64,000 nucleotides of DNA, taken from assembly GCA_050692985.1 (NCBI GenBank), contig JBOGVZ010000049.1, positions 80,410 through 144,409 of the forward strand. Direction: 5' to 3'. Position 1 is the first letter of the stretch. Each line of letters starts with the position of its first letter. The notes beneath the pieces are model-generated. The model did no database searches. It was not told the origin of the DNA and worked only from the letters and a program-made list of their open reading frames with translations. The translations under genes and the position numbers were made by a program. Below, in pieces: positions 5,911 through 48,755 of the stretch. The DNA is from Actinomycetota bacterium (GTDB lineage Bacteria; Actinomycetota; UBA4738; CALAEC01).

Positions 5911-7181
5911 GGGGAGAAGGCCGGAGACAGCGAGGGCTGGCGGGTGACCTGGGCGCCGATCCCCCCGAGCTTGGCCTCGAGGTCCTCGTAGCCGCGGTCC
6001 ACGTGCTCCACGTCGGACACCTCGGTGACCCCGTCTGCACCGAGGGCCGCCAGGACCAGGGCCGCCCCGGCCCGCAGGTCGAGGGCTCGGACCGGCGCCG
6101 AGGACAGCCGCTCGACGCCCCGGATGACCGCGTGGTGACCCTCGGTCCGGATGTCGGCCCCCATCCGGTTCAGCTCGTCCACGAACATGAACCGGCTCTC
6201 GAACACGTTCTCGGTGATGATGCTCGTTCCCTCGGCCGCGGCCAGCAGGGCCATGATCGGCGGCTGGAGGTCCGTGGGGAACCCGGGGTACGGGAGCGTG
6301 ACCAGGTCCGCGACCCGCGGCCGGCCGGCCATCCCCACGCGGACGCCCCCTTCCTCGATGTCCACCCGGGCACCGACCTCGTCGAGCTTGGCCAGCACCA
6401 GGTCCAGGTGGTCGGCCCGGGCCCCCTCCAGCAGGACCTCGCCCCCGGTCACGCAGGCGGCGATGGCGAACGTCCCGGCCTCGATGCGGTCGGGGATCAT
6501 GGCGTGCTCCGCGGGGCGGAACCGGTCCACACCCTCGATCTCGATCGTGGGGGTGCCCACGCCCTCGATCCGGGCCCCCATCGCGGTGAGGAACGTGGCC
6601 AGGTCCTCGATCTCCGGCTCCCGGGCGGCGTTCTCGATCACCGTGGTGCCCCGGGCGGCCACCCCCGCCATCAGCAGGTTCTCGGTGGCCCCCACGCTGG
6701 GGAAGTCGAGCGACACCACGGCCCCCTCCAGCCCCCCGGTCTCCGCCTCCAGGTAGCCGTGGTCGAAGGAGAATGTGGCCCCCATCCGCTCCAGCCCCCG
6801 GATGTGCAGGTCGATCCGGCGCCGGCCGATGTTGCAGCCTCCCGGCATGGCCACCCGGGCCCGGCCCGTCCGGGCCAGCAGCGGCCCCAGGACCAGGATC
6901 GAGGCCCGCATCCGCCGCACCAGCTCGTACGGGGTCTCGATGCCCAGCGTCCCGGTGGCGTCGATGACCACGGCGTGGTCCTGCCGCTCCACCCCGGCAC
7001 CCAGCCGCTCGAGGACGTCCACCATGGTCCCGCAGTCGGAGATGTCCGGGACGTTGCGCAGGACCGTCCGGCCCTCCGCCAGGAGGGCCGCCGCCATCAC
7101 CTTCAGGGTGGCGTTCTTGGCCCCCCCGATCCGGACCGAGCCGGCCAGGCGGGGGCCTCCAGTGACCATCAGTCGACCCAT
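5907..7181 (-). CDS. murA: UDP-N-acetylglucosamine 1-carboxyvinyltransferase
   Basis: 424 aa. It carries GAKNATLK, the active-site Cys loop [13 protein letters not shown], and other typical MurA/EPSP-fold motifs. Confidence 0.9.
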
Positions 7182-7277: not shown

Positions 7278-9080
7278 ATGCCCGCGACCTGGAGGTGGAG
7301 GATGCGAAGGCTCGCCCCGCTGGCCCTCTCGGTGTCCGTGGTCCTGGCCCTGGTACCGGCCGCCGGCGCCGGCGCCCGAGCCGAGGCGCCGATCGACCCC
7401 CCGGTGCTGGCCACGGCCGGGCGGCAGAGCGCCCTGGTCCACGTCGAGCCGTCGGCCTCCCTGGAGGCCGGGGTGGAAGCGGCCCGCGCCGCCGGCCTGG
7501 ACCTGGGAACCACGTATCCGATGATCAACGTGTTCGTGGCCTACGGCGACCGCGACGCCTTCCGCAAGGTCGCCGCCTCGCCGGTCGTGGAGCAGGTCGA
7601 GGCCAACAGCCTCCTGGAGCTGTTGACGAACACCTCCCACATCGCCACCCGGGGCCAGGACGTGCTCGACGGGGCCGTGACGCTCCCCGACGGCACCGTG
7701 ATCGACGGCACCGGGGTGGGGGTGGCCGTGGTGGACACCGGGGTGGAAGGGACCCACCCCGACCTGGAGAGCCGGATGGGCGGGAACGTGCGGATCTACT
7801 GCACCGCCCCGGGCGCGATCATCGCCATCGGGATCTCCGGCCTGGGGTTCTCGGAGTGCCGGGGCCCGAAGGTCGTGGTGCCCCTGGACGACACCGACAC
7901 CCCCGGAGCCGGCGGGCACGGGACCCACGTGGCCGGGATCGTGGCCGGCGACGGGACGGCCTCGGAGGCCACCTTCCACGGGGCCGCGCCGGGGGCCACC
8001 CTGTTCGGCGTGGCGGTGGGGACCACCCTGCTGGTGGAGAACGCCCTGGACGGGCTGCGGTGGGTCCTCGACAATCACGACCAGGTGGACCCGCCGATCA
8101 GGGTCGTCAACAACTCCTGGGGCGGCGGTCCCGGGCCCGGCGACGAGGACAACGTCCTCCAGGGAGCCATCACCAAACTCCAGAACCTGCTGATCGGCGA
8201 CGGCGTCACCGTGGTGTTCGCCGCCGGGAACTCCGGGGGGAACGGCTCCAACCAGCAGACCACCGCGCAGTGCGCCCTGACCACCCCGGGCAACGTCTGC
8301 GTGGCCTCCTACGACGACGGGGACACCGGCACCCGGGACGGCTCCCTGTCGTCGTTCTCATCCCGGGGCTCGGCAGCCAACGCGGCCACGTGGCCGGACA
8401 TCTCGGCTCCCGGCCAGTTCATCATCTCCACCTGCCGGTACACCCTGCCGGTGTGCTGGGTCCACGCCGGCCAGCAGCTCGATCCCCCGAACTCGTACTC
8501 CGAGCTGTCGGGAACCTCCATGGCCGCCCCCCACATCTCGGGGATCATCGCCCAGCTTTACCAGGCCAACCCCGACCTGACCCCGGCGCTGGTGGAGGAG
8601 GTGCTGGAGGACACCGCTCACAAGTTCACGTTCGGCGCGCCGTACCAGGACGACCCGTTCAACCCCGACGACACGTCGTCGTTCGACAAGGGGCACGGGC
8701 TGGTGGACGTCCTGGCCGCCGTGCAGGCGGTGCTGCCGGAGCCGGTAGAGCCGAGCCTGGAGATCACCGCTCCCGAGGACGGCTCGATCGCCCGCCAGAC
8801 GATCACGGTCTCCGGCACCGCGTCGCATCCAGGCACCGTGACCGTGGCCGTCGATGGGGTCGAGGTGGGCGCCGCCGACGGCAGCGCCCCCATGTGGTCC
8901 TTCGACCTGGACACCCTGAGGCTGCGGGAAGGCCTCCGCCAGGTGTCGGCGACGCTCTCCGCCGCCGACGGGGTGACGGCCCGCGACGCCATCACGATCG
9001 TGGTGGATAACTGCCCGCCCTACCAGGCCCCGGGAGGCTCCCGGCCGCCTCCGCCCAGCTGCCGCAAGGGCGGCCGTTAG
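7278..9080 (+). CDS. Secreted subtilisin-like serine protease (peptidase S8)
   Basis: Signal peptide MPATWRWRMRRLAPLALSVSVVLALVPAAGAGA (alternative ATG at 7302). Catalytic triad motifs: VAVVDTGV (Asp), HGTHVAGIVAG (His), GTSMAAPHISG (Ser). The C-terminus has an Ig-like region and a Cys/Pro tail. Confidence 0.85.
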   Translation: MPATWRWRMRRLAPLALSVSVVLALVPAAGAGARAEAPIDPPVLATAGRQSALVHVEPSASLEAGVEAARAAGLDLGTTYPMINVFVAYGDRDAFRKVAASPVVEQVEANSLLELLTNTSHIATRGQDVLDGAVTLPDGTVIDGTGVGVAVVDTGVEGTHPDLESRMGGNVRIYCTAPGAIIAIGISGLGFSECRGPKVVVPLDDTDTPGAGGHGTHVAGIVAGDGTASEATFHGAAPGATLFGVAVGTTLLVENALDGLRWVLDNHDQVDPPIRVVNNSWGGGPGPGDEDNVLQGAITKLQNLLIGDGVTVVFAAGNSGGNGSNQQTTAQCALTTPGNVCVASYDDGDTGTRDGSLSSFSSRGSAANAATWPDISAPGQFIISTCRYTLPVCWVHAGQQLDPPNSYSELSGTSMAAPHISGIIAQLYQANPDLTPALVEEVLEDTAHKFTFGAPYQDDPFNPDDTSSFDKGHGLVDVLAAVQAVLPEPVEPSLEITAPEDGSIARQTITVSGTASHPGTVTVAVDGVEVGAADGSAPMWSFDLDTLRLREGLRQVSATLSAADGVTARDAITIVVDNCPPYQAPGGSRPPPPSCRKGGR

Positions 9081-9375
9081 GGGGACGACCGGTCCCGCGG
9101 GCGAGGAAGGGGGAGCGGGGCCTGCCGCGCCCCCTCCTCGGGCGGGTCCCGACAGCCTTCGGTGACATTTCTCGGAAGAACCGGCCAATCCCGGAATCCG
9201 AACTTGACGCGGTTGTCCGGAACGGCCAAGATTCCCGGGCGAGGAAGGCAACCACTGGGCGATCCGGCCCGGTTGAGCGGAGGGAGGTGGTTGTCGAGGA
9301 CCAACGCCGTTGTCGGAGCTCTCCATGGGCTCCCTGCCCGTCGAATCCCTTTTCCTACACAGGAGGAACCGCTTG

Positions 9376-11316
9376 ATGAGGAAGTCTCCGCGCGTACTTG
9401 TCATGCTGGCCGGCGCCGTGGCGTTCGCCCTAAGCGGGCTGCCGGGCGCCAGCGCCACGCACAACGCGGACGTCCACACGCCCAACATGGCGTACGAGGG
9501 CACGTCCGTGAAGAACGACATCACCAACTCGGACCTGGCCTTCTGGGGGAACCGGGCCTATGCCGGGAACTACGCGGGGTTCCGGATCATCGACATCACG
9601 GACCCCACGGACATCGAGAACCCGGCCAACGTGATCACCGACTTCTCCTGTCCGGGTCCGCAGAACGACATCTCGGTGTGGGACAGCGATGGGGACGGGA
9701 CCGCCGACCTGCTGTTCCTGTCGGTGGACTCCCCACGCACGGATGACAGCTGTGCCAGTGGAGCCACCACTGCCAGCAACGTGGACTCCTGGGAGGGCGT
9801 CCGCATCTTCGACATCAGCAACGAGCTGGCCCCGGTGCAGATCGCGGCCGTGCCCACGGACTGCGGCTCGCACACCCACACGCTGGTGCCGGGGGACGAC
9901 GGGAACGTGTACCTCTACGTGTCCTCGTATCCGCTGGGAACCGCCGCGGTCACCACGAGCCTGGCGGCTCGCAACGATGTGGTGGTCGACGGCGTCCAGA
10001 TCGACTTCCCCGCGGGTGTCCGCAACGACGGGACGGAGTGCCTGGAGCCCGAGGCCGGGGAGGCCAAGCAGAACGGGATCCACAACAAGATCTCCATCAT
10101 CCGGGTTCCGGAGGCCGACCCGGCCTCTGCCGGCGACCGGACGCCGAACGACCCGGACGGCCCGGGCGGCAACGACCCCATCGGGTGGACCTACCCGAAC
10201 GTGAAGGAGGTCGCGCTCGACGGCGGCACGTACTGGACGCACCGCCCCTCGGGGGGCAGGGTCTTCGACTTCACCGCCTGCCACGACATCGCCGTGTTCA
10301 TGGAGATCAACCGGGCCGCGGGAGCCTGCTGGGCCGAAGGGCACATCTGGGACATCAGCTCCCCCTTCAGCCCGCACTTCCTCCGCCGGTTCCGCCACGA
10401 CAAGGTGAGCGACCTGTTCCACTCGGCCACCTTCTCGTGGGACGGCAAGATCATGGCCTTCGAGGATGAGTCCGGCGGCGGCGGCGCCGACCGGTGCCAC
10501 CTGGAGAACGGGGAGACGGACGAGCAGGGCGCCATGTACTTCTACACCCTGACCGGCGACCTCCTGGGGACCTTCAAGATCCCCATGGACATCCCCGGTC
10601 CGTGCACGGCGCACAACTACAACGTCGTCCCCGTCACCGACGGTCGGTACATCCTGTCGTCGGCCTGGTACACCGGAGGGACGTGGATGGTCGACTTCAC
10701 CGACCCGTCCGAGCCGGTGGACGTCGGCCACTACATCGCCAACACCGCGCCGAACGGCGTCGGGGATCCGATCTCGTCGGACGTGTGGTCGTCGTACTGG
10801 TACAACGGCTACGTCTACGCCAACGACGGGCTCCAGCGCGGCGACGCCATCCAGGAGCGGGGGCTGGACGTGTTCTCGTTCAACTCCCCGAAGGTGGCGA
10901 CGGCCATCGACCTGGACTTCCTGAACCCACAGACGCAGATGGAGCTGATCCCGCAGACTCCGGTGGTGCCACGGTGCTTCGGGCTCAACGCCACGATCGT
11001 GGGCACGAAGGACGCCGACGAGCTCGACGGGACCGCCCTGGCAGACGTGATCGTCCTCAAGGGAGGCCACGACACGTCGAACGGCAAGGGCGGGAACGAC
11101 CGCATGTGCGGCGGCGCCGGGCGCGATGAGCTGAGCGGCGGCAAGGGCAAGGACCGCCTCAAGGGAGGCAAGGGCGCCGACATCCTCGAGGGTGGGCCCG
11201 GAAACGACACCCTCATCGGCGGCCCCGGCGTCGACCTGTGCATCGGCGGCAAGGGCAAGAAGGACAAGGCGAAGGGCTGCGAGTTCATGAAGGGGATCGA
11301 GATCGTCCTCGACTGA
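9376..11316 (+). CDS. Secreted LVIVD-repeat beta-propeller protein with C-terminal RTX-type Ca-binding repeats
   Basis: RBS aggagga lies 8 nt upstream of ATG 9376. Signal peptide MRKSPRVLVMLAGAVAFALSGLPGASA. Repeats of the form GFRIIDITDPTD and GVRIFDISNELAP (LVIVD-like). The C-terminus has GGxGxD nonapeptides (GGHDTSNGKGGNDRMCGGAGRDELSGGKGKDRLKGGKGADILEGGPGNDTLIGGPGVD). It is a paralog of the gene at 13271-15280. Confidence 0.65.
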   Translation: MRKSPRVLVMLAGAVAFALSGLPGASATHNADVHTPNMAYEGTSVKNDITNSDLAFWGNRAYAGNYAGFRIIDITDPTDIENPANVITDFSCPGPQNDISVWDSDGDGTADLLFLSVDSPRTDDSCASGATTASNVDSWEGVRIFDISNELAPVQIAAVPTDCGSHTHTLVPGDDGNVYLYVSSYPLGTAAVTTSLAARNDVVVDGVQIDFPAGVRNDGTECLEPEAGEAKQNGIHNKISIIRVPEADPASAGDRTPNDPDGPGGNDPIGWTYPNVKEVALDGGTYWTHRPSGGRVFDFTACHDIAVFMEINRAAGACWAEGHIWDISSPFSPHFLRRFRHDKVSDLFHSATFSWDGKIMAFEDESGGGGADRCHLENGETDEQGAMYFYTLTGDLLGTFKIPMDIPGPCTAHNYNVVPVTDGRYILSSAWYTGGTWMVDFTDPSEPVDVGHYIANTAPNGVGDPISSDVWSSYWYNGYVYANDGLQRGDAIQERGLDVFSFNSPKVATAIDLDFLNPQTQMELIPQTPVVPRCFGLNATIVGTKDADELDGTALADVIVLKGGHDTSNGKGGNDRMCGGAGRDELSGGKGKDRLKGGKGADILEGGPGNDTLIGGPGVDLCIGGKGKKDKAKGCEFMKGIEIVLD

Positions 11317-11336
11317 CGCTCGCAGGTAGCAGGACG

Positions 11337-11370
11337 GGAAGGGGCCCGGCCGCCAGGCCGGGCCCCTTCC
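11337..11370. terminator. GC-rich hairpin downstream of the LVIVD/RTX gene
   Basis: GGAAGGGGCCCGGC-cgccag-GCCGGGCCCCTTCC. This is a perfect 14-bp stem with a 6-nt loop and no U-tract. Confidence 0.5.
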
Positions 11371-11433
11371 GTTGCCCGGGTCTCCCCTGCAACTCGGACG
11401 AAACGGCCGGGACGCGGTAAGATTCTGAGGCCC

Positions 11434-12747
11434 ATGAGCCGACCTGCCGTCCGGGCTCGAGCCGCCGCCGTGCTGGCCTCCACCGCCGTCCTCGCGGGCA
11501 TCCTGGTCAGCACCCCGGCCCGGGCCGAGGCCTGCGGCAACTTCTCCGTCCGCCTGGCCGAGCTGGCCTACGGCGAGCCCGTGGAGTCGGTGTTCAACCC
11601 GGTCCCGGGGGCCCACTTCTACTGGGCCGCCGAGGGATCCCCGAGCGTGGGGTTCACGATCGTGGCCTTCGGCCACGACTGCACCGGGCAGCAACACACC
11701 GCCAGCTTCGCCACGGGAACGGGGACGGCCACCTCGGGCCAGGACTACCAGGCCCGGACCGGGACCACCCCGCAGATGGAGGTTCAGGACATCGACCCGG
11801 AGTACTGGTCCAGCACCATCACCCTGCTGAACGACGCGGTCGCCGAGCCCGCCGTGGAGTACGTCCCGTTCTCGATCACGGCGTCCGGGGCCAACATCGT
11901 GTCCCCATGGTCGGTCCCGGTGTACCTGGTGGACGACGATGGGCTCAGCCGGGTGAGCCTGCCCCCCACCCCGACGAGCTACACCGTGGGTGAGAACGTG
12001 GGGACGTGGAGGATCCCGGTGTTCCGCGCCGGAGACGCCAGCGCGTCGAGCGGCACGATCACCGTCTCCGCCACGCACGGCACCACGGACGACGCCGACT
12101 TCAGCATCTCGCCGTCTTCGTTCTCCTTCGGCCCGGGGCAGCGGAAGCAAGACATCACGGTGACCATCGTTGACGACAAGGACGACGAAGCGGACTCGGA
12201 GTCCTTCACGGTGTCCATCTCCGGCACCCAGGTGGAGGCGCCCTCCAGCGTCACGATGAACATCCTCGACAACGATCTCCCCCCAGGGAGCGACACCGCA
12301 GCTCCCAAGACGTGGTTCCACCACCCAAAGCACAAGAAGGACTATGCGTTCGGCTCGCTCAAGGCCCGGACGATCCACGTGTTCGCCCCCACCGAGGACG
12401 TGGCCAACAAGTACGGCCCGGCCGAGCCCAGCGGGATCGACAAGGTCCAGGCGGCCCTGAAGAGGAAGAAGACCAGCGGCAAGTGCCAGTGGTGGACGGC
12501 CTCCCGCACGTGGAAGGGCGGGAAGTGCGGCTCGCCGAAGTGGTTCAAGCTGAAGTTCGACTTCAAGCTGGCCTCCGACCGCTACCTGTACGTGTACGAC
12601 CTGCTGACGGACCTCAAACCCAGCAAGGGGACCAAGGTCAAGTTCTACCAGGTGTGGTCCCGGGCCCAGGACGGAGCCGGCAACTGGGAGTCCACCTTCG
12701 AGGTCGGCCGGAACAAGAACAGGTTCGAGATCAACAAGAAGAAGTAG
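11434..12747 (+). CDS. Secreted protein with two Calx-beta-like domains and a Lys-rich C-terminal module
   Basis: Signal peptide MSRPAVRARAAAVLASTAVLAGILVSTPARA. Calx-beta signatures: ATGTGTATSGQDYQARTG and TITVSATHGTTDDADF...TIVDDKDDEADSESFTVSIS. From about nt 12300 the sequence drops in GC and becomes Lys-rich (KWFKLKFDFKL...KVKFYQVWSRAQDGAGNWESTFEV). Confidence 0.6.
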   Translation: MSRPAVRARAAAVLASTAVLAGILVSTPARAEACGNFSVRLAELAYGEPVESVFNPVPGAHFYWAAEGSPSVGFTIVAFGHDCTGQQHTASFATGTGTATSGQDYQARTGTTPQMEVQDIDPEYWSSTITLLNDAVAEPAVEYVPFSITASGANIVSPWSVPVYLVDDDGLSRVSLPPTPTSYTVGENVGTWRIPVFRAGDASASSGTITVSATHGTTDDADFSISPSSFSFGPGQRKQDITVTIVDDKDDEADSESFTVSISGTQVEAPSSVTMNILDNDLPPGSDTAAPKTWFHHPKHKKDYAFGSLKARTIHVFAPTEDVANKYGPAEPSGIDKVQAALKRKKTSGKCQWWTASRTWKGGKCGSPKWFKLKFDFKLASDRYLYVYDLLTDLKPSKGTKVKFYQVWSRAQDGAGNWESTFEVGRNKNRFEINKKK

Positions 12748-12777
12748 TCGGAGCCCGTCGGAAGGGAGGATCGGCCT

Positions 12778-13197
12778 ATGGAGAAGGAATCGCGAGACGC
12801 GCAGGTGGCTCCGGAAGGGACCCGGCGTGTGTGGCGGCGTGTCCTGGCGATCGGGATCGCCCTGGTCCTGGTGGTGGCGATGTCCGCGGTGGCGCTGGCT
12901 GCCGTCCAGAAGGTGAAGGCGGTGGACGGCAACAAGTTCAAGCCCAAGCATGCGTACATCGAGCGGCTCGACAAGATCAAGTGGGTGAACAAGGACAACA
13001 TCACGCACAACGTGAAGTCCACGAACCTGAAGAAGAACTGGAAGTACGGTCCGAAGACCATCAAGCCCGGAGAGAGCGTCAGCCGGAAGTTCAAGAAGCT
13101 GGGGACGTACATCTACCGGTGCACGCTGCATTCCGCGATCGTGAGCGGCGTGTGCGAGGGGATGTGCGGGTTCGTCCACGTGCAGAAGAAGACCTAG
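12778..13197 (+). CDS. Membrane-anchored cupredoxin (plastocyanin/amicyanin-like blue copper protein)
   Basis: RBS gggagga. N-terminal TM anchor. IKWVNKDNITHNV (His ligand region) and GTYIYRCTLHSAIVSGVCEGMCGFVHV (Cys-x2-His...Met type-1 Cu loop). Lys-rich, lower-GC codon usage. Confidence 0.6.
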   Translation: MEKESRDAQVAPEGTRRVWRRVLAIGIALVLVVAMSAVALAAVQKVKAVDGNKFKPKHAYIERLDKIKWVNKDNITHNVKSTNLKKNWKYGPKTIKPGESVSRKFKKLGTYIYRCTLHSAIVSGVCEGMCGFVHVQKKT

Positions 13198-13221
13198 CGC
13201 CGCGCGCGCCACGCACGAGAG

Positions 13222-13250
13222 AAGGGGGCCGGCTGGACGCCGGCCCCCTT
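13222..13250. terminator. Bidirectional hairpin between convergent cupredoxin and LVIVD-2 genes
   Basis: AAGGGGGCCGGC-tggac-GCCGGCCCCCTT. Perfect 12-bp stem with a 5-nt loop. Confidence 0.55.
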
Positions 13251-13270
13251 CCTCGTGAACCGCCCCGGCC

Positions 13271-15280
13271 CTACGGGCCGGTGTACCTGAAGATGTACAG
13301 GCCGAAGTCCCGGTCGCTGGCCACGATCAGGCGACGGCCCTTGTCATCCTTTCCGGCAAGCTGGACGCCCCAGAAATCGTTCCCACCGATGTCGGCGAAG
13401 TGGCCGACCTCGTTGATCCCGATGTTCTTGCCGTACTTGGCCACCCGGAAGCCACCGTCGTAGTAGGCGAAGTACGCCAGCTTCCGGTTCCCCTTCATCG
13501 AGTCGGTGGCCACCTCGTGGACGGAGTAGGTCCCGCCCTGGATGGCCAGGTCCTCGTCGAGGCCTTCGGGGATGACGTACTGATCGAGCTCGGTGGACGT
13601 CCCGTTGAGCGGGTCGCTCTGGAACAGGTGGCTGTAGCCCCACCCGTCGAAGTGCGCGGTGAAGGCCACGTCGTCACCGACGTCACCGACGTCCGGCTCG
13701 ACGTCGCCGGGGTCACCGACCGGATAGGGCACCGTGTAGTCCGGGGGGTACCCGAACAGCAGGTGCATCTCCCGGTGCCCGATGCAGGTGCCCGGGATCT
13801 GCGGGTCGAAGATGTGCCCCTGGCTCCCGCAGATGAAGGCATCCGGGCTGGCTCCCGCGCCCGACCCGGAGTGGTGGTTGGCGACGATGGCGCCGCCGTA
13901 GCCCAGGAGCTGGGCCGTCTCCACCTTCTCGGAGAAGAAGCAGGCGTCCCCCGGGTTGTTCGGGTCAGAGACCGGTCCCCGCTGGGTCACCAGGATGAGC
14001 TCCTCGTCGGGCCCGGTGGCGATCCCGGTCTCCGCGGCCGTGGGGATGTTGTCCCTGTCGTTCGGGCAGGCATAGCCGCCGAACACCGTCGGACCGTTCA
14101 TCGAGTTGTCCGGCAGCGTGGCGATCGGCACCGTCCACCCGAACTCCCCGGCCGGATACTCGCCGGCGTTGGGTCCGCTCGTGATGAAGTGGTCCTGCCG
14201 GAACGGCGAGAAGTCCTCATCGTTGCCGATGAAGAGCTTCTTGGACCGGTTCCACTCCCCGTAGTGTGCGTTGCCCTCCGGAGGGCAGAACGCGGGGAAG
14301 AACGGCTCGCAGGCGGCGTAGTCGCTGTCGCCCAGGAACACCGGGTTGGCCGGGTCGCTGAGGTCCAGGTTGACCCACCCGCCGTCCCAGTACGACAGCA
14401 GCCCGACTGGCGTGCCGTCGACCTTCTTCGTGGTCAGGTCGTGCAGGAAGGCGTTCGTCCCGAAGGCGTCCACGTTCAGGCTCGGCCAGTCCGGTCGCCC
14501 CGTCTCCTGGATCAACACGGGGTTCGTCGGGTCGCTGAGGTCGAAGATGTCGACGTCGTACTGGCCCGACTCGTTGTTGTCCACCGCGATCGCGTAGACG
14601 TTGCCCCCGCCCTTCCAGGCGAACGCGCTGTGGTACTGGTGAGGGGCGGTGATGATCGCGCCGGGGTCCTGGAAGTGGCCGATCGTGGTGTCGCCCACAC
14701 CCTCGGACAGCTTCACCGCGTCCCGGGGATCCGTGATGTCCCAGATCGTCAGGCCCCCGATGCCGCCCGGGCCGCAGATCTCGTTGGAGATCAGCAGGAT
14801 GTCCCCGGTGAATGCGGCGGTGTTCATGTGGAAGGCCTGCATCCCCTCGGTGGCATAGGTGTTCGTGTGGCTCTTGAGGAACCCGCCGACCTTCCCGGGC
14901 TTCTCTGGGTTGTTCATGTCCACGACCCAGGAGCCGCCCGTGCACAGCTCGAACGGAAGGCCCGCCTGCCACCTGGCCAGATAGGCGAAGCCCTTGTGAT
15001 AGGCCACGTCCGCCACGCGGCTCTCGACCTTCGTGACCTGGAGCTTGCCAACGAGCTTCACGTTGGACTTGGTCCCCTCAGGGCGATTGGTCGCCTTGCC
15101 CTTCGGGGCGGCATGGTCACCCCTCTGTTCCGCCACCTCCTGCATGGTGGTCTGCCCGTCCCGGGCATTCTTGCTGCCCCCACCGTCGCCATCGTCGTCG
15201 GCCGACACTGGGCCGGAGACGAATAATCCGGTGGCCAGCGCAAGGCCGAGGACGAGCGCGAGGCTCCTGCGTCGCTGCAT
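13271..15280 (-). CDS. Secreted LVIVD-repeat beta-propeller protein (paralog 2)
   Basis: Signal MQRRRSLALVLGLALATGLFVSGPVSA followed by a DDDGDGGG acidic linker. Repeats GLTIWDITDPRDAV and YDVDIFDLSDPTNPVL. It sits immediately downstream of copCD on the same strand. Confidence 0.65.
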   Translation of the reverse strand: MQRRRSLALVLGLALATGLFVSGPVSADDDGDGGGSKNARDGQTTMQEVAEQRGDHAAPKGKATNRPEGTKSNVKLVGKLQVTKVESRVADVAYHKGFAYLARWQAGLPFELCTGGSWVVDMNNPEKPGKVGGFLKSHTNTYATEGMQAFHMNTAAFTGDILLISNEICGPGGIGGLTIWDITDPRDAVKLSEGVGDTTIGHFQDPGAIITAPHQYHSAFAWKGGGNVYAIAVDNNESGQYDVDIFDLSDPTNPVLIQETGRPDWPSLNVDAFGTNAFLHDLTTKKVDGTPVGLLSYWDGGWVNLDLSDPANPVFLGDSDYAACEPFFPAFCPPEGNAHYGEWNRSKKLFIGNDEDFSPFRQDHFITSGPNAGEYPAGEFGWTVPIATLPDNSMNGPTVFGGYACPNDRDNIPTAAETGIATGPDEELILVTQRGPVSDPNNPGDACFFSEKVETAQLLGYGGAIVANHHSGSGAGASPDAFICGSQGHIFDPQIPGTCIGHREMHLLFGYPPDYTVPYPVGDPGDVEPDVGDVGDDVAFTAHFDGWGYSHLFQSDPLNGTSTELDQYVIPEGLDEDLAIQGGTYSVHEVATDSMKGNRKLAYFAYYDGGFRVAKYGKNIGINEVGHFADIGGNDFWGVQLAGKDDKGRRLIVASDRDFGLYIFRYTGP

Positions 15281-15402
15281 ACCTCTCCCCCCCTTTCAGG
15301 GTCCGTAGGCGGACGAACTCTAGGCTTTTCCCGACTTGCGGCGCAACCCTCGACCTGGGGGTATCGACCTCCTTGGCCGGCTCTTCTTGTGTGACATGCC
15401 GC

Positions 15403-17352
15403 TCAAGCACCCAACCCGGCCTCGAAGCACCCCGACAGGCCGGCCTCCGGGGCCACTCCGTCGAATCGCCAGCGGCCGGGTTCCAGCCTGGCGTTTGCGG
15501 AGAAGTGGCCTCGCGACAGGGGATCGGCCCGGAGCGTCATGGGATCGGTCCCCGGCTGCCACGCCGTGATCGTTGGGGTACCCGCCGCCACCTCCTCCCC
15601 CCCCTCGTCGAGGAACGTGAAGTGCACCTCGTAGCTGGGCCCCCCGAAATACAGGGTGTATCCCTCCACCGACCCTCCGGCCGGCGGCTCCGTCAGGTAG
15701 ATCGTCGGTTGGGCCGAATCCGGGGGCGGCTCGATCTCCTGGGCCCGGCACACCGTGGCCATCTGGAGGGGCACCTCCACGGCGGTGTCCCCCTCCTGGA
15801 CCAGGACCGCGACGTCCCACACCCCGCCCACGGCCAGGTTGCTGCCCACCCCCCGGTAGTCGCCCTCGTCCTCGGCCTGGAGGGCCAGCGTGGTGTCGCT
15901 CACTCCCCCGCCGGTGAACGAGAAGCGCACCTGCACGCGGTCGGCATCAACCGGCTCGCCGGAGTCGAAGTCGGTCACCTGGACCCGGAACCGGTTCGGG
16001 CCGGGGAGCGCGGGGTCGACCTCGAGCCGGGCACGCACCGAGGTGGCGAAGTCCGACCCTGCGACCGACACCGCGGCCGGCGGGACGGTCACCGGGGGGA
16101 CGGACTGCGGGGGAACCAGCGCGGCCAGGGTCCCCGCGGCGGCAAGCGTGACCGCGCCCAGGACGAGCTCCCCCCTGGAGACGCGGCGCAGCCCCCGCAG
16201 GGAGCGGCGGGCCGCCGGCACGTTCCGGTACCGATTGACGGCTCCCAGTCCGGCCAGCCCCAGCAGGAGCCCGGCCTTCACCAGGACGATCACCCCGTAC
16301 GAGGAGGAAACCAGCTCGCCCCAGGCACCGACCTCGTCCACGGCCCGGAGGACGCCGGTCGCGGCCACCGCGCCCAGGCCGAACGCCGCCACCGCCGAGA
16401 ACCGCCGGACGGCCCGGGCCTTGGCCTCGTCCGTGTCGCCCCGGACACCGACGAGCAGGGCGGCCAGGCCGCCGAGCCACACCCCGGCGGCGGTGAAGTG
16501 GGCCCACTGGAACCCGACGCTGGCCCACTCGAACCGCCCACCCGCGGCCGCATGGCCCGAGGCCACGTGGACCAGGATCCCGGCCGAGGCCACCACGCCG
16601 GCGGCCAACAGGGCGGGGCGCCGGGCCGCGGGGCGCCCCCACGTGGCCACGACCACCAGCACCCCGGCCACCCAGATGGCCGCCGCTCGCCACAGCAGGG
16701 CCCGGCCCACCGGGGTCCCAAGCAGGGCGCCCACCCCGGCGCCGGCCGCCCGCCCCTGGGCCACCGCCAGCCCCGCCAGCCCGAGCGCGGCCACCCCGGA
16801 GGCCCACAGGGCCACCCGCAGCGTCCGCCTGGGCGGCTCCCGGAACGCCAGGGCCCCGACCCACCCGGCTCCCACCACGAACCCCAGCCCGACGAACAGC
16901 GCCCACCGGCCGGCGATCTCCAGGAGGGATGGGGACTCCGAGGGCGGCTCGGGGGTCGGCGGGAGCGTCGCCTGGAGCGGCGACACGCCCACCCCAAAGG
17001 CGAACGCGCCCCCGGTGGGATGGCCGTCCACCCGGGACACCACCCGCCACGTCACGGTGTAGACCCCCTCCTCCAGCGGGCGGAGGCCCACCCGGAGCGC
17101 CAGCGGCTGGCCGGGCACGGGCTCCGCGGAGCCCTCCTGGACCTCGGCCCCTCCCTGGTCGAGCACCCGGACGTGTGACAGCGAGGGCTCCGGGGGCTCG
17201 GTCAGGGTGATCGTGACCTCCCGGGGACCCTCCTCGACCTGGGCGCCGTCGGCGGGATCGGACCCGCTCAGCAGGGCGTGGGCTCGGGCCGGGGTTGGGA
17301 GCGACAGCAGCGCCGCCGTGGCCACGGCGGCTGCCAGGAGGAGGCGTCGCAC
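15403..17352 (-). CDS. copCD: Fused CopC-CopD copper resistance/uptake protein (YcnJ-like)
   Basis: GTG start giving VRRLLLAAAVATAALLSLPTPARA-HALLSGSDPADGAQV. The CopC cupredoxin-like domain (TWRVVSRVDGHPTGGAFAFGV) is followed by a ~8-TM CopD domain and a C-terminal soluble domain. Confidence 0.8.
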   Translation of the reverse strand: MRRLLLAAAVATAALLSLPTPARAHALLSGSDPADGAQVEEGPREVTITLTEPPEPSLSHVRVLDQGGAEVQEGSAEPVPGQPLALRVGLRPLEEGVYTVTWRVVSRVDGHPTGGAFAFGVGVSPLQATLPPTPEPPSESPSLLEIAGRWALFVGLGFVVGAGWVGALAFREPPRRTLRVALWASGVAALGLAGLAVAQGRAAGAGVGALLGTPVGRALLWRAAAIWVAGVLVVVATWGRPAARRPALLAAGVVASAGILVHVASGHAAAGGRFEWASVGFQWAHFTAAGVWLGGLAALLVGVRGDTDEAKARAVRRFSAVAAFGLGAVAATGVLRAVDEVGAWGELVSSSYGVIVLVKAGLLLGLAGLGAVNRYRNVPAARRSLRGLRRVSRGELVLGAVTLAAAGTLAALVPPQSVPPVTVPPAAVSVAGSDFATSVRARLEVDPALPGPNRFRVQVTDFDSGEPVDADRVQVRFSFTGGGVSDTTLALQAEDEGDYRGVGSNLAVGGVWDVAVLVQEGDTAVEVPLQMATVCRAQEIEPPPDSAQPTIYLTEPPAGGSVEGYTLYFGGPSYEVHFTFLDEGGEEVAAGTPTITAWQPGTDPMTLRADPLSRGHFSANARLEPGRWRFDGVAPEAGLSGCFEAGLGA

Positions 17353-17368
17353 AGGGCCCTGCGGGTGG

Positions 17369-18001
17369 CTAGGAGGCACGGCGTCCGGCCAGGCCGGCCC
17401 CGGCCAGGACCACGGCCAGGGCGGCCAGGACGACGGCCACGATCGCCAGCACGGTAGAGGCGCCGGCACCGGATCCCAGGTCCTGCGCCTGGATGTCCTG
17501 CCGGAGCGCCTGGATGCGGGAGTCGATCCGATCCAGCCTGGTGGCCAGCTCCCCGGCGGTGGGGTCCCGGGCCGGGAACTGCGCGTCCGCGGGGTTCTGG
17601 ACGTCGTCGAACGTCTCGCCCGAGGTGAACTCCTCGTCGAAGTCCCGACCGGCCAGCGCGCCGGTGATGAGGAACGTGTAGGTCCCCGGGCGGGTCGGGA
17701 TCAGGAACGCGTGGTACTCGCCGGGGCTGCCGAACGCGGGAAGGAGGGGCAGCGGCTCGGTCGACTCCGTGCTGTCGGGGTCGCCGAACAGCACCTGGAC
17801 CTCCAGGTCGGCCCCCCGGACGGGCCGGTTGCCCCGGACCGCCGTGAGCTGGACCGCGTTGGCGAAGCCGGCGAAGGCGGGCTCTTCGAGCCAGCCGACC
17901 TCAACCTCCAACGGCCCGACCTGCCGTTCCTCGTGGGCCCGGGCCGGGGTGAGCGTCAGCAGCAGGACCCCGGACGCGGCAACGACGACACCCCTCCACA
18001 C
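17369..18001 (-). CDS. ycnI: YcnI-like (DUF1775) copper-binding protein with C-terminal TM anchor
   Basis: Signal MWRGVVVAASGVLLLTLTPARA, then the mature protein starts HEERQVG (N-terminal His). It ends in a C-terminal hydrophobic anchor. It lies directly upstream of copCD, matching the ycnI-ycnJ arrangement. Confidence 0.65.
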   Translation of the reverse strand: MWRGVVVAASGVLLLTLTPARAHEERQVGPLEVEVGWLEEPAFAGFANAVQLTAVRGNRPVRGADLEVQVLFGDPDSTESTEPLPLLPAFGSPGEYHAFLIPTRPGTYTFLITGALAGRDFDEEFTSGETFDDVQNPADAQFPARDPTAGELATRLDRIDSRIQALRQDIQAQDLGSGAGASTVLAIVAVVLAALAVVLAGAGLAGRRAS

Positions 18002-18045
18002 GGCCCGCCAAGTGTAGCGGGTGCCCGCGCGCAGGGGCGTCGGTG

Positions 18046-18792
18046 CTAGGGGGCCGGCGTGAGGCCCTCGGCCACCCGGGTGAGCTCGTCCAGGCCGAGC
18101 CCGTACTCGTTCACCGAGTGGAAGGTGCAGTCCTTCGTCGGGTCGCTCGTGGCGCCCCTATTCGGGTGCCGGAACTGGACCATGAAGTCCTCGCCCGCCG
18201 GGCCTTCCTCGTAGTTCGGGACCACCGGGCCGAAGTCGGCCGTCTCCCGGCCGAGCACGGTGATCGTGGGGCCGCCCTCCTCCTGGACGATCTCCACGAA
18301 CAGCATCCCCGGGCGGCGGATCTCGAACGACCGCTCGCCGTCGGTCCAGTGCACCACGCCCTGGCCGTCCTCCGCAGGGTAGATCGACTGGGGGGCGGGC
18401 CCCGGCACCGGGTCCTCGGAGAACCCCTCAGGCAGGTGCGACGGCTCGAAACCCAGCGGGCCGGGGCAGGCCCCGGTCAGGACCACTGAGGACCCCCCGA
18501 CGGGGCTGGGGGTCAGTTCCGCAGTGGCCGTCTCCTCCGGGGTCGGCGAGGGGGCGCTGGGAGAGCCGAAGCCCACCGGTGGCCGCTCCCCTCGGACCGC
18601 CTCCAGGGCCCGGGGGACGCCCACCGCGGCGGCGGCGATCACCGCGGCCGCGGCCATCCCCGCACCGACCCGGTAGAGGGTGCGGCGGCGCCGTCCCCCC
18701 GACACGACCCGGCGCAGCGACGGATCCACCTCGGGATCCGCGTCGGCCGCCAGCCGGGGCAGCCCGTCGCGCAGCCGGTCATCCAGCGACAT
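18046..18792 (-). CDS. Putative anti-sigma factor (single TM, proline-rich extracytoplasmic domain)
   Basis: Starts MSLDDRLRDGLPRLAAD and overlaps the sigma-factor stop by ~14 nt. There is a TM segment at MAAAAVIAAAAVGV. Assignment rests on position and topology only. Confidence 0.5.
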   Translation of the reverse strand: MSLDDRLRDGLPRLAADADPEVDPSLRRVVSGGRRRRTLYRVGAGMAAAAVIAAAAVGVPRALEAVRGERPPVGFGSPSAPSPTPEETATAELTPSPVGGSSVVLTGACPGPLGFEPSHLPEGFSEDPVPGPAPQSIYPAEDGQGVVHWTDGERSFEIRRPGMLFVEIVQEEGGPTITVLGRETADFGPVVPNYEEGPAGEDFMVQFRHPNRGATSDPTKDCTFHSVNEYGLGLDELTRVAEGLTPAP

Positions 18793-19303
18793 CAGAGACC
18801 TCCTCCTCTCCCAGCACCTCGGCCAGGCGCTTCCGCGCCCGGTGGAGGTGCACCTTGGCGGTCGAGGTGGCGCATCCCATGATCTCGGCCACCTCGGCCA
18901 CCGGTCGATCCTCGAAGTAGTGCAGGACCACCGCGGCCCGCTGCGAGGACGGCAGTCCCAGCAGCGCCCGGCGGAGGTCCGGGTCGGACACTGGCTCGGT
19001 CCGTCCCGGGTCCTCGACCTCCGCCTGGAGCACGGTCCGCCGGCCGGCCCGCAGCGACCGCGACGCCAGCCTGATGGCCACCCGGCGGACCCAGGCACCC
19101 GGACGTTCGTACCGGGAGATGCGCCGCCACCGCGCGTACAGTCGGATGAAGGCCTCCTGGGCGACGTCTTCCGCCGCCGCCCGGTCGCCCAGCATCAGGT
19201 ACGCCGTGCGCACGATCGCGGGGTACTCGTCACGGAACAGCCAACCGAACGCGGTGTCCGTGTCCGTCTCCCGTGCCACTCGCAGCTCCGTGGTCAGTGC
19301 CAT
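18779..19303 (-). CDS. ECF-type RNA polymerase sigma factor (sigma-70 family, group 4)
   Basis: MALTTELRVARETDTDTAFGWLFRDEYPAIVRTAYLMLGDRAAAEDVAQEAFIRLYARW (region 2) and LPSSQRAAVVLHYFEDRPVAEVAEIMGCATSTAKVHLHRARKRL (region 4 HTH). Confidence 0.85.
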   Translation of the reverse strand: MALTTELRVARETDTDTAFGWLFRDEYPAIVRTAYLMLGDRAAAEDVAQEAFIRLYARWRRISRYERPGAWVRRVAIRLASRSLRAGRRTVLQAEVEDPGRTEPVSDPDLRRALLGLPSSQRAAVVLHYFEDRPVAEVAEIMGCATSTAKVHLHRARKRLAEVLGEEEVSDVAG

Positions 19304-19364
19304 ACCCTCCCACAGCCCCGGGCGTCGGGGAAGGTTTACCGACGACGGGGCCCTTCCCGGAGGC

Positions 19365-20030
19365 CTACCGGCGGTCGAGCTCCTCTCGAAGGGCTCCCAG
19401 GGCATCGGCTTCCTCGGGGGTGCGGGCCAGCCGGATCAGGTCGTCGACCGAGGCCACGCGGACCGTGAAGTCGCCCATCGGGACAGCCTCCGCGGCGCGG
19501 TCGAGGAGCTCGTAGGAGCCCACGCGGCGGAGCGCCCACCGCGGCGTCACGGTCCCGTACCGGATCCGGCCCGCTCCCAGCCGCTGGACGGCCAGCCGCA
19601 GGCGGCGACGGTTCATGGCGTCCGGCCGGGGAGCAACCTCAACCGTGCTCGGCCAGGCGGGCGCCCCGCGCAGCAACGCGGCCACGCCCCCGATCGCCAC
19701 ACATCGGACGCGGCGGCCCCTGACGAGGATCCGGAGCACCTGGGCCGGCCGGAAGCCTGGGGCGCTCGCATGTGCCAGGCGCTCGGACGGGGTCAGCCGC
19801 AGGAGGTCCCGGATTTCCTTCCGGTCCACGTCCATCCCGAGTCGGGGCTCGACCGCCAGCGAGGCCCCGCACGCTCGCAGGAGCCGCTCGAGCGTGTCGA
19901 CCCGGGGGATGCCCCCGCCACGCTCGATGCGCGCCACGGCGGGCTGAGGCAGCCCGGCCCGCCGGGCCACCTCGGCCTGGGTCAGCCCCGCACGAGCCCG
20001 TGCCTCCCGGAGGACCCTCGCAGCGTTCAC
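19365..20030 (-). CDS. XRE-family HTH transcriptional regulator with C-terminal domain of unknown function
   Basis: N-terminal LTQAEVARRAGLPQPAVARIERG matches a Cro/C1-type HTH. It lies 61 nt upstream of the ECF sigma gene on the same strand. Confidence 0.6.
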   Translation of the reverse strand: MNAARVLREARARAGLTQAEVARRAGLPQPAVARIERGGGIPRVDTLERLLRACGASLAVEPRLGMDVDRKEIRDLLRLTPSERLAHASAPGFRPAQVLRILVRGRRVRCVAIGGVAALLRGAPAWPSTVEVAPRPDAMNRRRLRLAVQRLGAGRIRYGTVTPRWALRRVGSYELLDRAAEAVPMGDFTVRVASVDDLIRLARTPEEADALGALREELDRR

Positions 20031-36463: not shown

Positions 36464-36472
36464 GCCGGCCCC

Positions 36473-48752: not shown

Positions 48753-48755
48753 CGC

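Follow-up and report, generated by a model that had tools for sequence, protein, structure and literature searches.

Two LVIVD-type beta-propeller proteins with a putative metal-ligand ring, encoded beside a blue copper protein in an actinomycete

Proteins A and B, encoded in the 64,000-nucleotide stretch of actinomycete DNA analyzed here (the window), are probably extracellular metalloenzymes. Judging by homology, their families preserve the binuclear-metal ligands of a solved relative, the phosphotriesterase Sb-PTE. In this lineage, A and B belong to a loose, recurrent module that also includes a type-1 (blue) copper protein and a secreted Calx-beta protein. We give a probability of about 40% to the reading that they are extracytoplasmic metalloenzymes of this Calx-beta/cupredoxin module, here with redox coupling to the cupredoxin.

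Organization of the locus

The features of the locus are as follows.

9376..11316, plus strand: protein A, 646 aa (NCBI protein ACRDI0_06410 of an Actinomycetota MAG)
10993..11265, plus strand: about 8 RTX repeats of A, nonapeptides of the GGxGxD type (Pfam HemolysinCabind, E 5e-15)
11434..12747, plus strand: secreted Calx-beta protein (Pfam Calx-beta, E 1.5e-12)
12778..13197, plus strand: cupredoxin (Pfam Copper-bind, 32.6 bits; cutoff, 21.2)
13221..13251, no strand: GC-rich hairpin, 13-bp core stem and 5-nt loop (sequence and fold)
13271..15280, minus strand: protein B, 669 aa (NCBI protein ACRDI0_06425 of an Actinomycetota MAG)
13676..14128, minus strand: protease-associated (PA) domain inserted in B, aa ~385 to 535 (Pfam PA)
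15403..17469, minus strand: CopC-CopD-FixH/YtkA fusion (Pfam CopC 9e-22, CopD 3e-18, FixH 2e-9)
17369..18001, minus strand: YtkA-like small exported protein (Pfam YtkA, 17.5 bits, under the cutoff)
18046..19098, minus strand: putative anti-sigma factor, a member of the minus-strand gene string
18779..19405, minus strand: ECF-type sigma factor (Pfam Sigma70_r2 and r4_2)

The Calx-beta and cupredoxin genes described between A and B were confirmed by Pfam. The minus-strand string runs from the sigma factor at its head through the putative anti-sigma factor, the YtkA-like gene, and the CopC-CopD fusion to B. In a related locus, L164, the same sigma/anti-sigma pair comes after an A-Calx-LVIVD block. 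The fusion, a CopC/CopD copper importer of the uptake type, shares its strand with B and lies 122 bp upstream of it. The YtkA-like gene lies upstream of the fusion, and a second copy of this pair is found at 46800-49259 (YtkA-like paralogue at 48780-49300 by tblastn). The hairpin sits within the 73-bp gap separating the convergent cupredoxin and B genes and is likely a bidirectional terminator; the fold of 13205-13265 has a free energy of -45 kcal/mol (z = -7.4), with 0 of 200 shuffles equally stable. A subtilase gene lies directly upstream, and the stretch flanked by murA and the atp operon differs among relatives.

Two ancient propeller families with different accessory modules

Both proteins are predicted to be exported, seven-bladed beta-propellers of the LVIVD type (AF2 models, pLDDT 87.9 for A and 86.8 for B), in agreement with the initial annotation, and we infer that both are located outside the cytoplasm. 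Protein A consists of a Sec-type signal (aa 1 to 27), the propeller (aa ~35 to 520), and an RTX beta-roll (aa ~540 to 630). Protein B has a signal (aa 1 to 27), an acidic disordered linker (aa ~28 to 65; residues 17 to 64 are of low confidence in the model), and a propeller with a PA insert between blades 5 and 6. The RTX-type tail noted for one propeller is present on A, where it matches the RTX blocks of CyaA and a lipase among PDB sequences and is modeled as short strands with a 9-residue period from 549 to 623. By its repeats, the tail is a Ca2+-binding beta-roll. Serralysins, family I.3 lipases, and CyaA share this C-terminal GGxGxD roll, but A differs from these RTX-tailed enzymes in its N-terminal Sec-type signal and actinomycete host, and no type I secretion genes were found near A. 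We read the RTX repeats of A as a module for Ca2+ binding and do not take them to indicate type I secretion or a toxin function. The DDDGDGGG linker was likewise found in B, behind a signal-like N terminus. The PA insert, which was not mentioned in the first reading of the sequence, scores 22.3 in B itself against a cutoff of 23.9; it is matched by 41 of the 47 B homologues and supported by the helix/strand pattern in the model. Its invariant columns are H469, H470, H502, and H506 and C405, C447, C484, and C499.

The repeat motifs that had led to the description of a paralogous pair were located in the translations of A (GFRIIDITDPTD at residues 68 to 79; GVRIFDISNE at residues 141 to 150) and B (GLTIWDITDPRD at residues 176 to 187; YDVDIFDLSDPTNP at residues 241 to 254). 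Kinship holds as remote homology, since the A and B families align by hhalign with a probability of 98.4% (E 5e-15, 236 columns, ~20% identity), but not as a recent duplication, since BLASTP gave a single 24-residue match (E 0.001). On this evidence, A and B are members of two ancient, widespread families, separated long ago, each represented by hundreds of orthologues across many genera of actinomycetes. The two proteins do differ in their accessory modules, with the RTX tail on one and the acidic linker, as well as the PA insert, on the other. However, RTX-tailed members occur in both families, which marks the tail as a mobile accessory and not as something gained by this pair alone; sub-functionalization after duplication, as had been proposed, is not supported for families of such age and divergence.

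The Pfam LVIVD model (PF08309) scores A at 18.7 and B at 14.8, both under the gathering score of 20.2, and both proteins are also under the threshold of TIGR04312 ("choice-of-anchor B"). PF08309 is matched by 41 of 46 A homologues and 40 of 47 B homologues, with weak matches to TIGR04312; the LVIVD assignment therefore stands for the families and not for either protein alone. Like A and B, proteins of these models are exported and have blades of ~42 residues with a G-x-x-I-x-D-I-S-D-P-x-x-P motif. Neither model carries an assigned function, and we know of no conserved metal-ligand ring in the description of either.

A ring of residues corresponding to the metal ligands of Sb-PTE

LVIVD proteins are not as uncharacterized as was first stated. 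Sb-PTE, a haloalkylphosphorus hydrolase/phosphotriesterase of Sphingobium sp. TCM1 (PDB 5HRM, 5IOJ), has been solved and studied. 5HRM was the only propeller match by profile against PDB sequences and is the only solved relative of A and B; it was also the top Foldseek match (E 1e-10; next, 1.5e-7). Sb-PTE resembles A and B in its seven LVIVD-like blades and in a Pfam LVIVD score under the threshold (16.2 bits), at an identity of ~20% or less. It differs in being a plasmid-borne, proteobacterial xenobiotic hydrolase and in lacking the RTX tail of A and the PA insert of B, and the ~2.5 kb inspected to either side of its gene contained no Calx-beta or cupredoxin gene.

We take the binuclear-metal ligands of Sb-PTE to be E201, H258, H317, H389, E407, and H475, numbers that reportedly go back to Mabanglo et al. 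in 2016; the sequence has E or H at all six. The B family aligned with Sb-PTE by hhalign at 83% (E 9e-6), pairing E201 with E145 and H258 with H217, and the A family at 90% (E 1.5e-6) over blades 5 to 7. In a joint MAFFT alignment, H475 of Sb-PTE shares a column with H413 of A and H588 of B, and H258 falls with H166 of A. The equivalences of H317, H389, and E407 were taken from blade order and the H-x16-18-E spacing, the blade-level hhalign register being ambiguous. On this basis, the six ligands correspond to invariant residues in the A and B families.

The ring of A comprises D53, D98, H166, H303 (with D304), H349 (with E365), H413, and W471, invariant residues placed where the innermost strand of each of blades 1 to 7 begins. 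In B, the invariant ring residues are D91, E145, H217, H280 (with D281), H339 (with E355), H588, and W637. Ring geometry was deduced from the homology to Sb-PTE and from where the residues fall along the predicted strands. Invariance extends to 121 to 122 of 122 A-type and 90 to 94 of 94 B-type proteins, down to ~28% identity, and the ring His are the only four conserved His of the A family. By this deduction, both proteins would keep a ligand set of four His and two carboxylates where the central channel opens.

This ring bears on the classical view of LVIVD, a domain defined in cell-surface proteins, under which A and B would be noncatalytic, Ca2+-stabilized propellers binding wall polymers, proteins, or surfaces, with the ring serving a structural role. 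The sparse LVIVD literature favors attachment or protein-protein interaction, Ca2+-binding parts (RTX and Calx-beta) abound in the module, and the surface-protein model "choice-of-anchor B" is weakly matched. However, a purely structural His/Asp/Glu set would not be expected to stay invariant in two families sharing 20% identity and to match the ligands of a solved enzyme, and neither A nor B has a C-terminal wall-anchoring motif. We consider this explanation improbable.

Neighboring genes across related loci

Neighborhoods were surveyed in ~170 related loci (80 of the A family, 80 of the B family, and 8 further). The most regular neighbor of A- and B-type genes is the Calx-beta protein, which is secreted and has a conserved, unannotated C-terminal domain; in 11 loci, an orthologue lies 1 to 2 genes away from an LVIVD gene, and orthologues also stand by an LVIVD gene in L164 and L165. 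The cupredoxin has an N-terminal signal or membrane anchor and the type-1 copper ligand set (His, Cys-x2-His, Met) with an extra C-x-G-M-C pair, and the ligands are kept in all aligned orthologues whose called open reading frame covers the site. Its best-scoring models are plastocyanin and amicyanin, under their cutoffs. Ten cupredoxin genes were found in nine loci, nine of them within three genes of an LVIVD gene; this amounts to only ~6% of all loci, and to 4 of the ~10 loci with close orthologues. The placement of the cupredoxin and Calx-beta genes beside A- or B-type genes is shuffled, with varying order and orientation.

The propellers had been placed at a copper locus, with co-occurrence of LVIVD and CopC/CopD genes as a lead. 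Three of the surveyed loci carried CopC/CopD (2 of 80 A-family, 0 of 80 B-family, and 1 of 8 further loci), a number that does not clearly exceed a rough estimate of chance proximity. What holds of the copper locus is the CopC-CopD fusion adjoining B and the recurring type-1 cupredoxin; the CopC/CopD adjacency is not conserved. Copper genes make up 16 of 692 genes within three genes of an LVIVD gene versus 4 of 687 farther away (odds ratio 4.0, p = 0.006), for a gene set partly picked after data inspection (CopA, CsoR). About 90% of the loci have no copper gene, and in both families a nearby metal gene is absent from most loci.

These counts make it quite unlikely that A and B are copper homeostasis proteins that bind or detoxify extracytoplasmic copper with CopC/CopD. 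Such a role would suit the position of B directly downstream of the fusion, behind an ECF sigma factor. It would also suit L164, where a CopC-CopD fusion lies 4.6 kb from the A orthologue, and the Cu P1B-ATPases, CsoR, or SCO1 near LVIVD genes in seven loci (L013, L048, L082, L101, L110, L160, and L167, the last with SCO1 and an HMA-type P-ATPase near a B homologue). However, the second YtkA-like/CopC-CopD pair of the window, ~30 kb away, has no LVIVD gene beside it, and the ligand set is His plus carboxylates, with no Met or Cys in family B. To our knowledge, this is not the set of known Cu(I) trafficking proteins.

Comparison with other propeller enzymes

Propellers and cupredoxins are combined in the methylamine dehydrogenase heavy chain with amicyanin and in nitrous-oxide reductase, which has propeller and cupredoxin domains. 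Both systems pair an extracytoplasmic seven-bladed propeller enzyme with an electron-carrying cupredoxin, but the likeness to A and B is one of analogy only: no sequence relationship to either enzyme was detected, and the locus holds no TTQ light chain, Nos, or Mau accessory genes. [quoted passage not shown] Sub-threshold PF05694 (SBP56) matches occur in 3 of 47 B-family members, over 39 residues overlapping an LVIVD blade; membership of the B family was rejected, as the hhalign probability was 9.5% and not significant. For SELENBP1, a His/Asp/Glu copper pocket has been proposed (PMC11394908).

Proposed function

The only characterized homologue, with the same ligand set, is a hydrolase and not a redox enzyme. 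A and B could accordingly be secreted binuclear (Mn/Zn-type) hydrolases like Sb-PTE, such as scavengers of phosphoesters or other esters or amides, with the cupredoxin and copper genes as bystanders in a variable genomic island. RTX tails and PA domains are usual accessories of secreted lipases and proteases, the gene directly upstream encodes a subtilase, the murA-atp interval varies among relatives, and most related loci have no redox or copper partner. This explanation does not account for the roughly fourfold enrichment of copper genes or for a cupredoxin that has kept its place next to A- or B-type genes despite several rearrangements. In addition, the bridging position (E201 of Sb-PTE) is occupied by Asp, not Glu, in the A family, which also has eight conserved Cys that are absent from Sb-PTE. 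We regard it as a somewhat unlikely but serious alternative.

Under the preferred metalloenzyme reading, the ring His and carboxylates would hold a binuclear-type metal centre at the mouth of the propeller channel, and the PA domain of B probably caps or gates this site. Single-electron transfer is the established function of blue copper proteins, and on this basis the metal centre of at least one of the propellers in this locus may be a site of redox chemistry, with the cupredoxin as electron partner. The Calx-beta and RTX modules may serve Ca2+-dependent folding or wall association, while the CopC-CopD importer stands outside the conserved module and at most supplies metal locally. The retention of the Sb-PTE ligand set suggests that A and B are most likely extracytoplasmic metalloenzymes rather than inert surface repeats.

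Gene organization of the locus

The genes for A and B, two LVIVD-type propeller proteins (A with an RTX tail, B with a probable PA insert), lie in a part of the window (GC ~70%, from an Actinomycetota metagenome-assembled genome [MAG]) where two gene strings converge. A is identical to NCBI ACRDI0_06410 and B to ACRDI0_06425, and all sequence motifs that the initial annotation had quoted for them were found in their translations.

Features of the locus
7278-9080, +, subtilase (Peptidase_S8)
9376-11316, +, A
11434-12747, +, Calx-beta protein, 117 bp after A
12778-13197, +, cupredoxin, 30 bp after the Calx-beta gene
13221-13251, strong hairpin in the 73-bp convergent gap (-45 kcal/mol, z = -7.4)
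13271-15280, -, B
15403-17469, -, CopC-CopD-FixH/YtkA fusion
17369-18001, -, YtkA-like protein
18046-19098, -, putative anti-sigma factor
18779-19405, -, ECF sigma factor

The plus-strand string of subtilase, A, Calx-beta, and cupredoxin genes meets a minus-strand string of sigma/anti-sigma, YtkA-like, CopC-CopD, and B genes, and both probably end at the strong hairpin that occupies the convergent gap. A scan of positions 8900-19600 found no sigma-70-like promoter, as is expected for an actinomycete at 70% GC. The longest ORFs of the sigma and putative anti-sigma genes overlap by 320 bp, and the real start of the latter is probably further downstream; no Pfam model matches the 350-aa product.

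The closest long contigs all keep A beside murA (5907-7181 in the window), an anchoring seen in three related genomes. The genes downstream differ, indicating that those for the Calx-beta protein, cupredoxin, B, and CopC-CopD come and go at this position. In the locus with 59% identity (L164) the order is CopC-CopD, SIR2, Rce1-like, X, murA, A, Calx-beta, LVIVD/RTX, anti-sigma, sigma, and in that with 50% identity (L166) it is murA, A, HNH, and, almost directly after A, the atp operon. From murA to about 20-28 kb, the region resembles a variable island flanked by core genes.

Domain architecture and predicted export

The assignment of both proteins to the LVIVD repeat family (PF08309) did not hold for the single sequences, which scored 18.7 (A) and 14.8 (B) bits against a gathering threshold of 20.2, but it did hold for their families. 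Matches were obtained for 41 of the 46 homologues aligned with A (best E value, 2e-12) and 40 of the 47 aligned with B (best E value, 4e-14). AF2 models built with these family alignments (pLDDT 87.9 and pTM 0.80 for A; pLDDT 86.8 and pTM 0.85 for B) predict a closed propeller of seven four-stranded blades in each protein, in agreement with the initial annotation, which had proposed a beta-propeller and left the blade count to structure prediction. Its RTX-type tail on A was likewise recovered. PF00353 (HemolysinCabind) matches the tandem GGxGxD nonapeptides with an E value of 5e-15 (55.5 bits; cutoff, 23), and the model shows, after the propeller, a beta-roll whose three-residue strands recur at intervals of nine residues between 549 and 623. 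RTX-type GGxGxD repeats occur again at 35165-35905 (+) in the window, with 30-41% identity to the A tail by tblastn; one candidate long ORF over them (33964-36618) has no Pfam match.

The N termini of A and B read as putative Sec signals, with a charged start, a hydrophobic core, and a site of the A-x-A type. Because A has this N-terminal signal, its RTX repeats were not taken as a sign of toxin function or type I secretion, and type I secretion found no support among the neighboring genes (subtilase, Calx-beta, cupredoxin, B, CopC-CopD, and sigma). A Tat signal in B, considered because of an RRR motif, was rejected, as the motif is absent from the family consensus.

Residues 17 to 64 of B are disordered in the model, and residues ~385 to 535 form a probable PA-type insert between blades 5 and 6 that the initial annotation had overlooked. 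The PA model (PF02225) scores 22.3 bits in B, below the cutoff of 23.9, and matches 41 of the 47 homologues (best E value, 6e-8). This insert (window 13676-14128, -) carries invariant residues of its own, H469, H470, H502, H506, C405, C447, C484, and C499, which may make up disulfides or a further site for metal or substrate; we know of no such His set in a typical PA domain. To our knowledge, LVIVD propellers have not been described with a PA insert, nor putatively Sec-exported ones with an RTX roll. RTX tails are present in 26 of the 46 A-family and 2 of the 47 B-family members, and some other A-type proteins have a CarboxypepD_reg domain or no extension; the tails are interchangeable accessories.

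Relationship of A to B

The paralogy proposed for A and B stands as homology but is ancient. Pairwise BLASTP aligned just one 24-residue blade motif (E value, 0.001), whereas comparison of the two family profiles gave a probability of 98.4% (E value, 5e-15) over 236 columns at ~20% identity. In the protein database, 7,693 of 8,000 scored candidates passed an E value of 0.001 for A and 941 did so for B. GTDB, with one genome per species, holds 558 genomic matches to A, including cultured Kribbella, Lentzea, Nocardioides, Amycolatopsis, Haloechinothrix, and Phytoactinopolyspora. Given the low identity and the separate, wide distributions of the two large families, a recent duplication followed by subfunctionalization within this locus was rejected as unsupported; subfunctionalization had been suggested from the divergent architectures of A and B.

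A conserved ring and its likely counterpart in Sb-PTE

In both families, the AF2 models and family alignments place invariant polar residues where, in one blade after another, the innermost strand begins, a position that, by propeller topology, would set them around the mouth of the central channel. The ring consists of D53, D98, H166, H303 (with D304), H349 (with E365, where the following strand ends), H413, and W471 in A and of D91, E145, H217, H280 (with D281), H339 (with E355), H588, and W637 in B. Among all proteins recovered from related loci, these residues are invariant in 121 to 122 of 122 A-type and 90 to 94 of 94 B-type sequences, down to ~28% identity, and the four ring His are the only His conserved at ≥80% in the A family. 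The A family also has eight conserved Cys (residues 92, 126, 163, 222, 302, 318, 374, and 410) that the B family and the solved relative described below do not have. C163, C302, and C410 lie 0 to 3 residues before a ring His. C302 is invariant even where C318 is lost, so that simple sequential disulfide pairing cannot account for all eight.

When the family profiles were searched against all PDB sequences, the single propeller match was the haloalkylphosphorus hydrolase of Sphingobium sp. TCM1 (Sb-PTE; 5HRM and 5IOJ), with hmmsearch E values of 3e-4 (B profile) and 0.02 (A profile). A Foldseek comparison of the B model with 350,542 chains also ranked 5HRM first (1e-10, versus 1.5e-7 for the next). 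The relationship is remote; hhalign probabilities were 83% for the B family (E value, 9e-6) and 90% for the A family (E value, 1.5e-6). Sb-PTE, like A and B, has a subthreshold LVIVD score (16.2 bits). Since this relative has been solved and studied, the view that LVIVD-repeat proteins are essentially uncharacterized was too strong. SBP56/methanethiol oxidase, suggested by a precomputed hit to PF05694, was rejected as a family and kept as an analogy only; its best score was 27.8 bits (cutoff, 34) over 39 residues, a single blade, and hhalign against human SELENBP1 gave a probability of 9.5%. The SELENBP1 query was validated through its match to 2ECE (6e-106).

Sb-PTE reportedly holds a binuclear Mn center with the ligands E201, H258, H317, H389, E407, and H475. 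In the full sequence, taken from a Sphingobium plasmid, all six positions are E or H, a check of residue identity only. Each has a candidate counterpart in the rings of A and B.

Candidate counterparts of the Sb-PTE ligands, with the basis of the placement
E201: A D98; B E145 (paired by hhalign)
H258: A H166 (joint alignment); B H217 (paired by hhalign)
H317: A H303; B H280 (probable, by blade order)
H389: A H349; B H339 (probable, by blade order)
E407: A E365; B E355 (probable, by blade order; H-x18-E in Sb-PTE, H-x16-E in A and B)
H475: A H413; B H588 (one column of the joint alignment)

Blades 5 to 7 of A are anchored by hhalign to blades 5 to 7 of Sb-PTE. The H317 and H389 counterparts are placed on the grounds that blades 1 to 3 and 6 to 7 are anchored and that each protein has seven blades. 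Blade-restricted hhalign paired nonequivalent blades, so that the repeat register is ambiguous and we infer the equivalences of H317, H389, and E407 from blade order. With hmmalign, only part of the Sb-PTE sequence could be aligned to the family HMMs.

The well-supported reading, to which we give a probability of about three in four, makes A and B exported propellers that carry a metal site of the Sb-PTE type, and hence metalloenzymes. The ligand set and the single studied relative both point to hydrolysis, and a plain hydrolase is a possibility, though less likely than not; at ~20% identity or less to Sb-PTE, phosphotriesterase activity cannot be transferred to A or B. A structural or adhesive role for these repeat proteins is improbable, less likely than either hydrolysis or redox coupling.

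Calx-beta and cupredoxin partners across related loci

Gene neighborhoods were compared in 80 genomic loci of the A family, 80 metagenomic loci of the B family, and 8 further loci with Pfam-annotated genes. The 160 fetched loci and 2 of the 8 annotated ones were searched with the window's proteins, and Pfam tables were read for the other six. The 162 searched loci contain 258 LVIVD genes, often in several copies, and 1,637 called neighbor genes, which were clustered. A- and B-type genes are adjacent to each other in ~17 to 19 of the 80 B loci and 7 of the 80 A loci. In six loci (L056, L064, L066, L070 [Lentzea], L014, and L159), a TetR regulator and a ~190-aa membrane protein accompany two or three LVIVD genes in the order A, A, B or B, B, A, often with BlaI/CopY-BlaR1 pairs within a few kilobases.

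The Calx-beta gene is the most regular partner, found in 11 loci and always one or two genes off, and it is also present in L164 and L165. Cupredoxin orthologues number 10 in nine loci, and 9 of these genes lie within three genes of an LVIVD gene. Their arrangements vary: A-Calx-cupredoxin, cupredoxin divergent from A-Calx, cupredoxin-B, B-Calx-cupredoxin-cupredoxin, and B-B-A converging on cupredoxin-Calx. We know of no previous description of an LVIVD/Calx-beta/cupredoxin module. The window's cupredoxin scores 32.6 bits for Copper-bind (cutoff, 21.2), and the type-1 ligand pattern H...C-x2-H...M is kept in those aligned orthologues with an ORF that spans it. A C-x-G-M-C motif surrounds the axial Met in the window's cupredoxin and in the orthologues of L004, L094, L142, and L159; two others, that of L010 and the second one of L142, have other residues in place of both Cys, which suggests a disulfide clamping the ligand loop.

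The blue-copper neighbor, retained through repeated rearrangement, points to electron transfer. At this locus we tentatively favor redox coupling over a plain hydrolase.

Copper genes near LVIVD genes

The initial annotation had placed the LVIVD proteins at a copper locus and proposed an association with CopC/CopD. This attractive link is unsupported. CopC/CopD genes were found within the fetched flanks of 2 of 80 A-family loci, 0 of 80 B-family loci, and 1 of the 8 Pfam-annotated loci, which by a rough estimate, assuming that a genome carries one or two of them, is not clearly above chance. Membership of A and B in the Cop system proper is unlikely, again less likely than redox coupling or hydrolysis. 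A second YtkA-like and CopC-CopD-FixH fusion pair, ~40% identical to that at 15403-18001, lies at 46800-49259 (-) in a housekeeping context, where its neighbors include prfA and a DUF1385 gene but no LVIVD gene. Within 35 kb, the MAG thus encodes two or more copper-uptake units of this type.

Cu-type P1B-ATPases with a CPC or CPH motif were found in five loci and CsoR-like repressors in three, and in L167 SCO1 and an HMA-ATPase lie near the LVIVD gene. When cupredoxin, Cu-ATPase, CsoR, CopC/CopD, and YtkA-like genes were pooled, they made up 16 of the 692 genes up to three positions away from an LVIVD gene and 4 of the 687 more distant genes of these loci (odds ratio [OR] by Fisher test, 4.0; P = 0.006), although the ATPase and CsoR classes joined the pool after the clusters had been seen and the a priori classes alone give ~10 versus 2. 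Directly adjacent genes gave 11 of 294 versus 9 of 1,085 (OR, 4.6; P = 0.0009). Sixteen of the 162 loci (10%) have a copper gene. This modest enrichment fits electron transfer and would equally fit proteins that have to be supplied with copper.

Two unrelated loci, L082 (3058-4098) and L167 (13150-14109), have a BNR/PSII_BNR (Ycf48-like) propeller gene beside a Cu-ATPase gene in the vicinity of LVIVD genes, in the latter also beside SCO1; in L082 a large exported protein (7801-9186) is encoded between the ATPase and the LVIVD pair. In L169, the locus of B homologue P0213, genes for an ArsR/SmtB-type regulator and a CDF cation-efflux protein come after three consecutive LVIVD genes, with a DUF2933 gene at the contig start; the metal link there is not obviously copper.

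Implications

The two families are unstudied, and their fold, repeat family, and metal site are of known kinds. A full-text literature search for "LVIVD" returned relevant papers that are silent on function, the abbreviation belonging mostly to veterinary cardiology. A more speculative reading, which we consider rather unlikely as a whole, is that A/B-type propellers, a dedicated membrane-anchored blue-copper protein, and the Calx-beta protein may constitute an extracytoplasmic oxidoreductase system, not described so far, in soil Actinomycetota. The Sb-PTE-like four-His/two-carboxylate center of this system would be redox active and possibly copper loaded via the CopA, SCO1, or CopC/CopD enriched nearby, and the known phosphotriesterase would have branched off recently, as a hydrolase, from a superfamily whose chemistry is mainly redox.

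Soil bacteria encode thousands of LVIVD-type propellers, which are annotated as hypothetical surface proteins. Two large actinomycete families appear to retain the complete metal-ligand set of the sole solved enzyme of this kind. Together with the recurring blue-copper carrier and the proximity of copper genes, this makes these "repeat proteins" candidate extracellular metalloenzymes. A concrete list of ring residues and a candidate redox partner are now at hand, and orthologues in cultured Kribbella, Lentzea, Nocardioides, Amycolatopsis, and Haloechinothrix make the hypothesis experimentally accessible.
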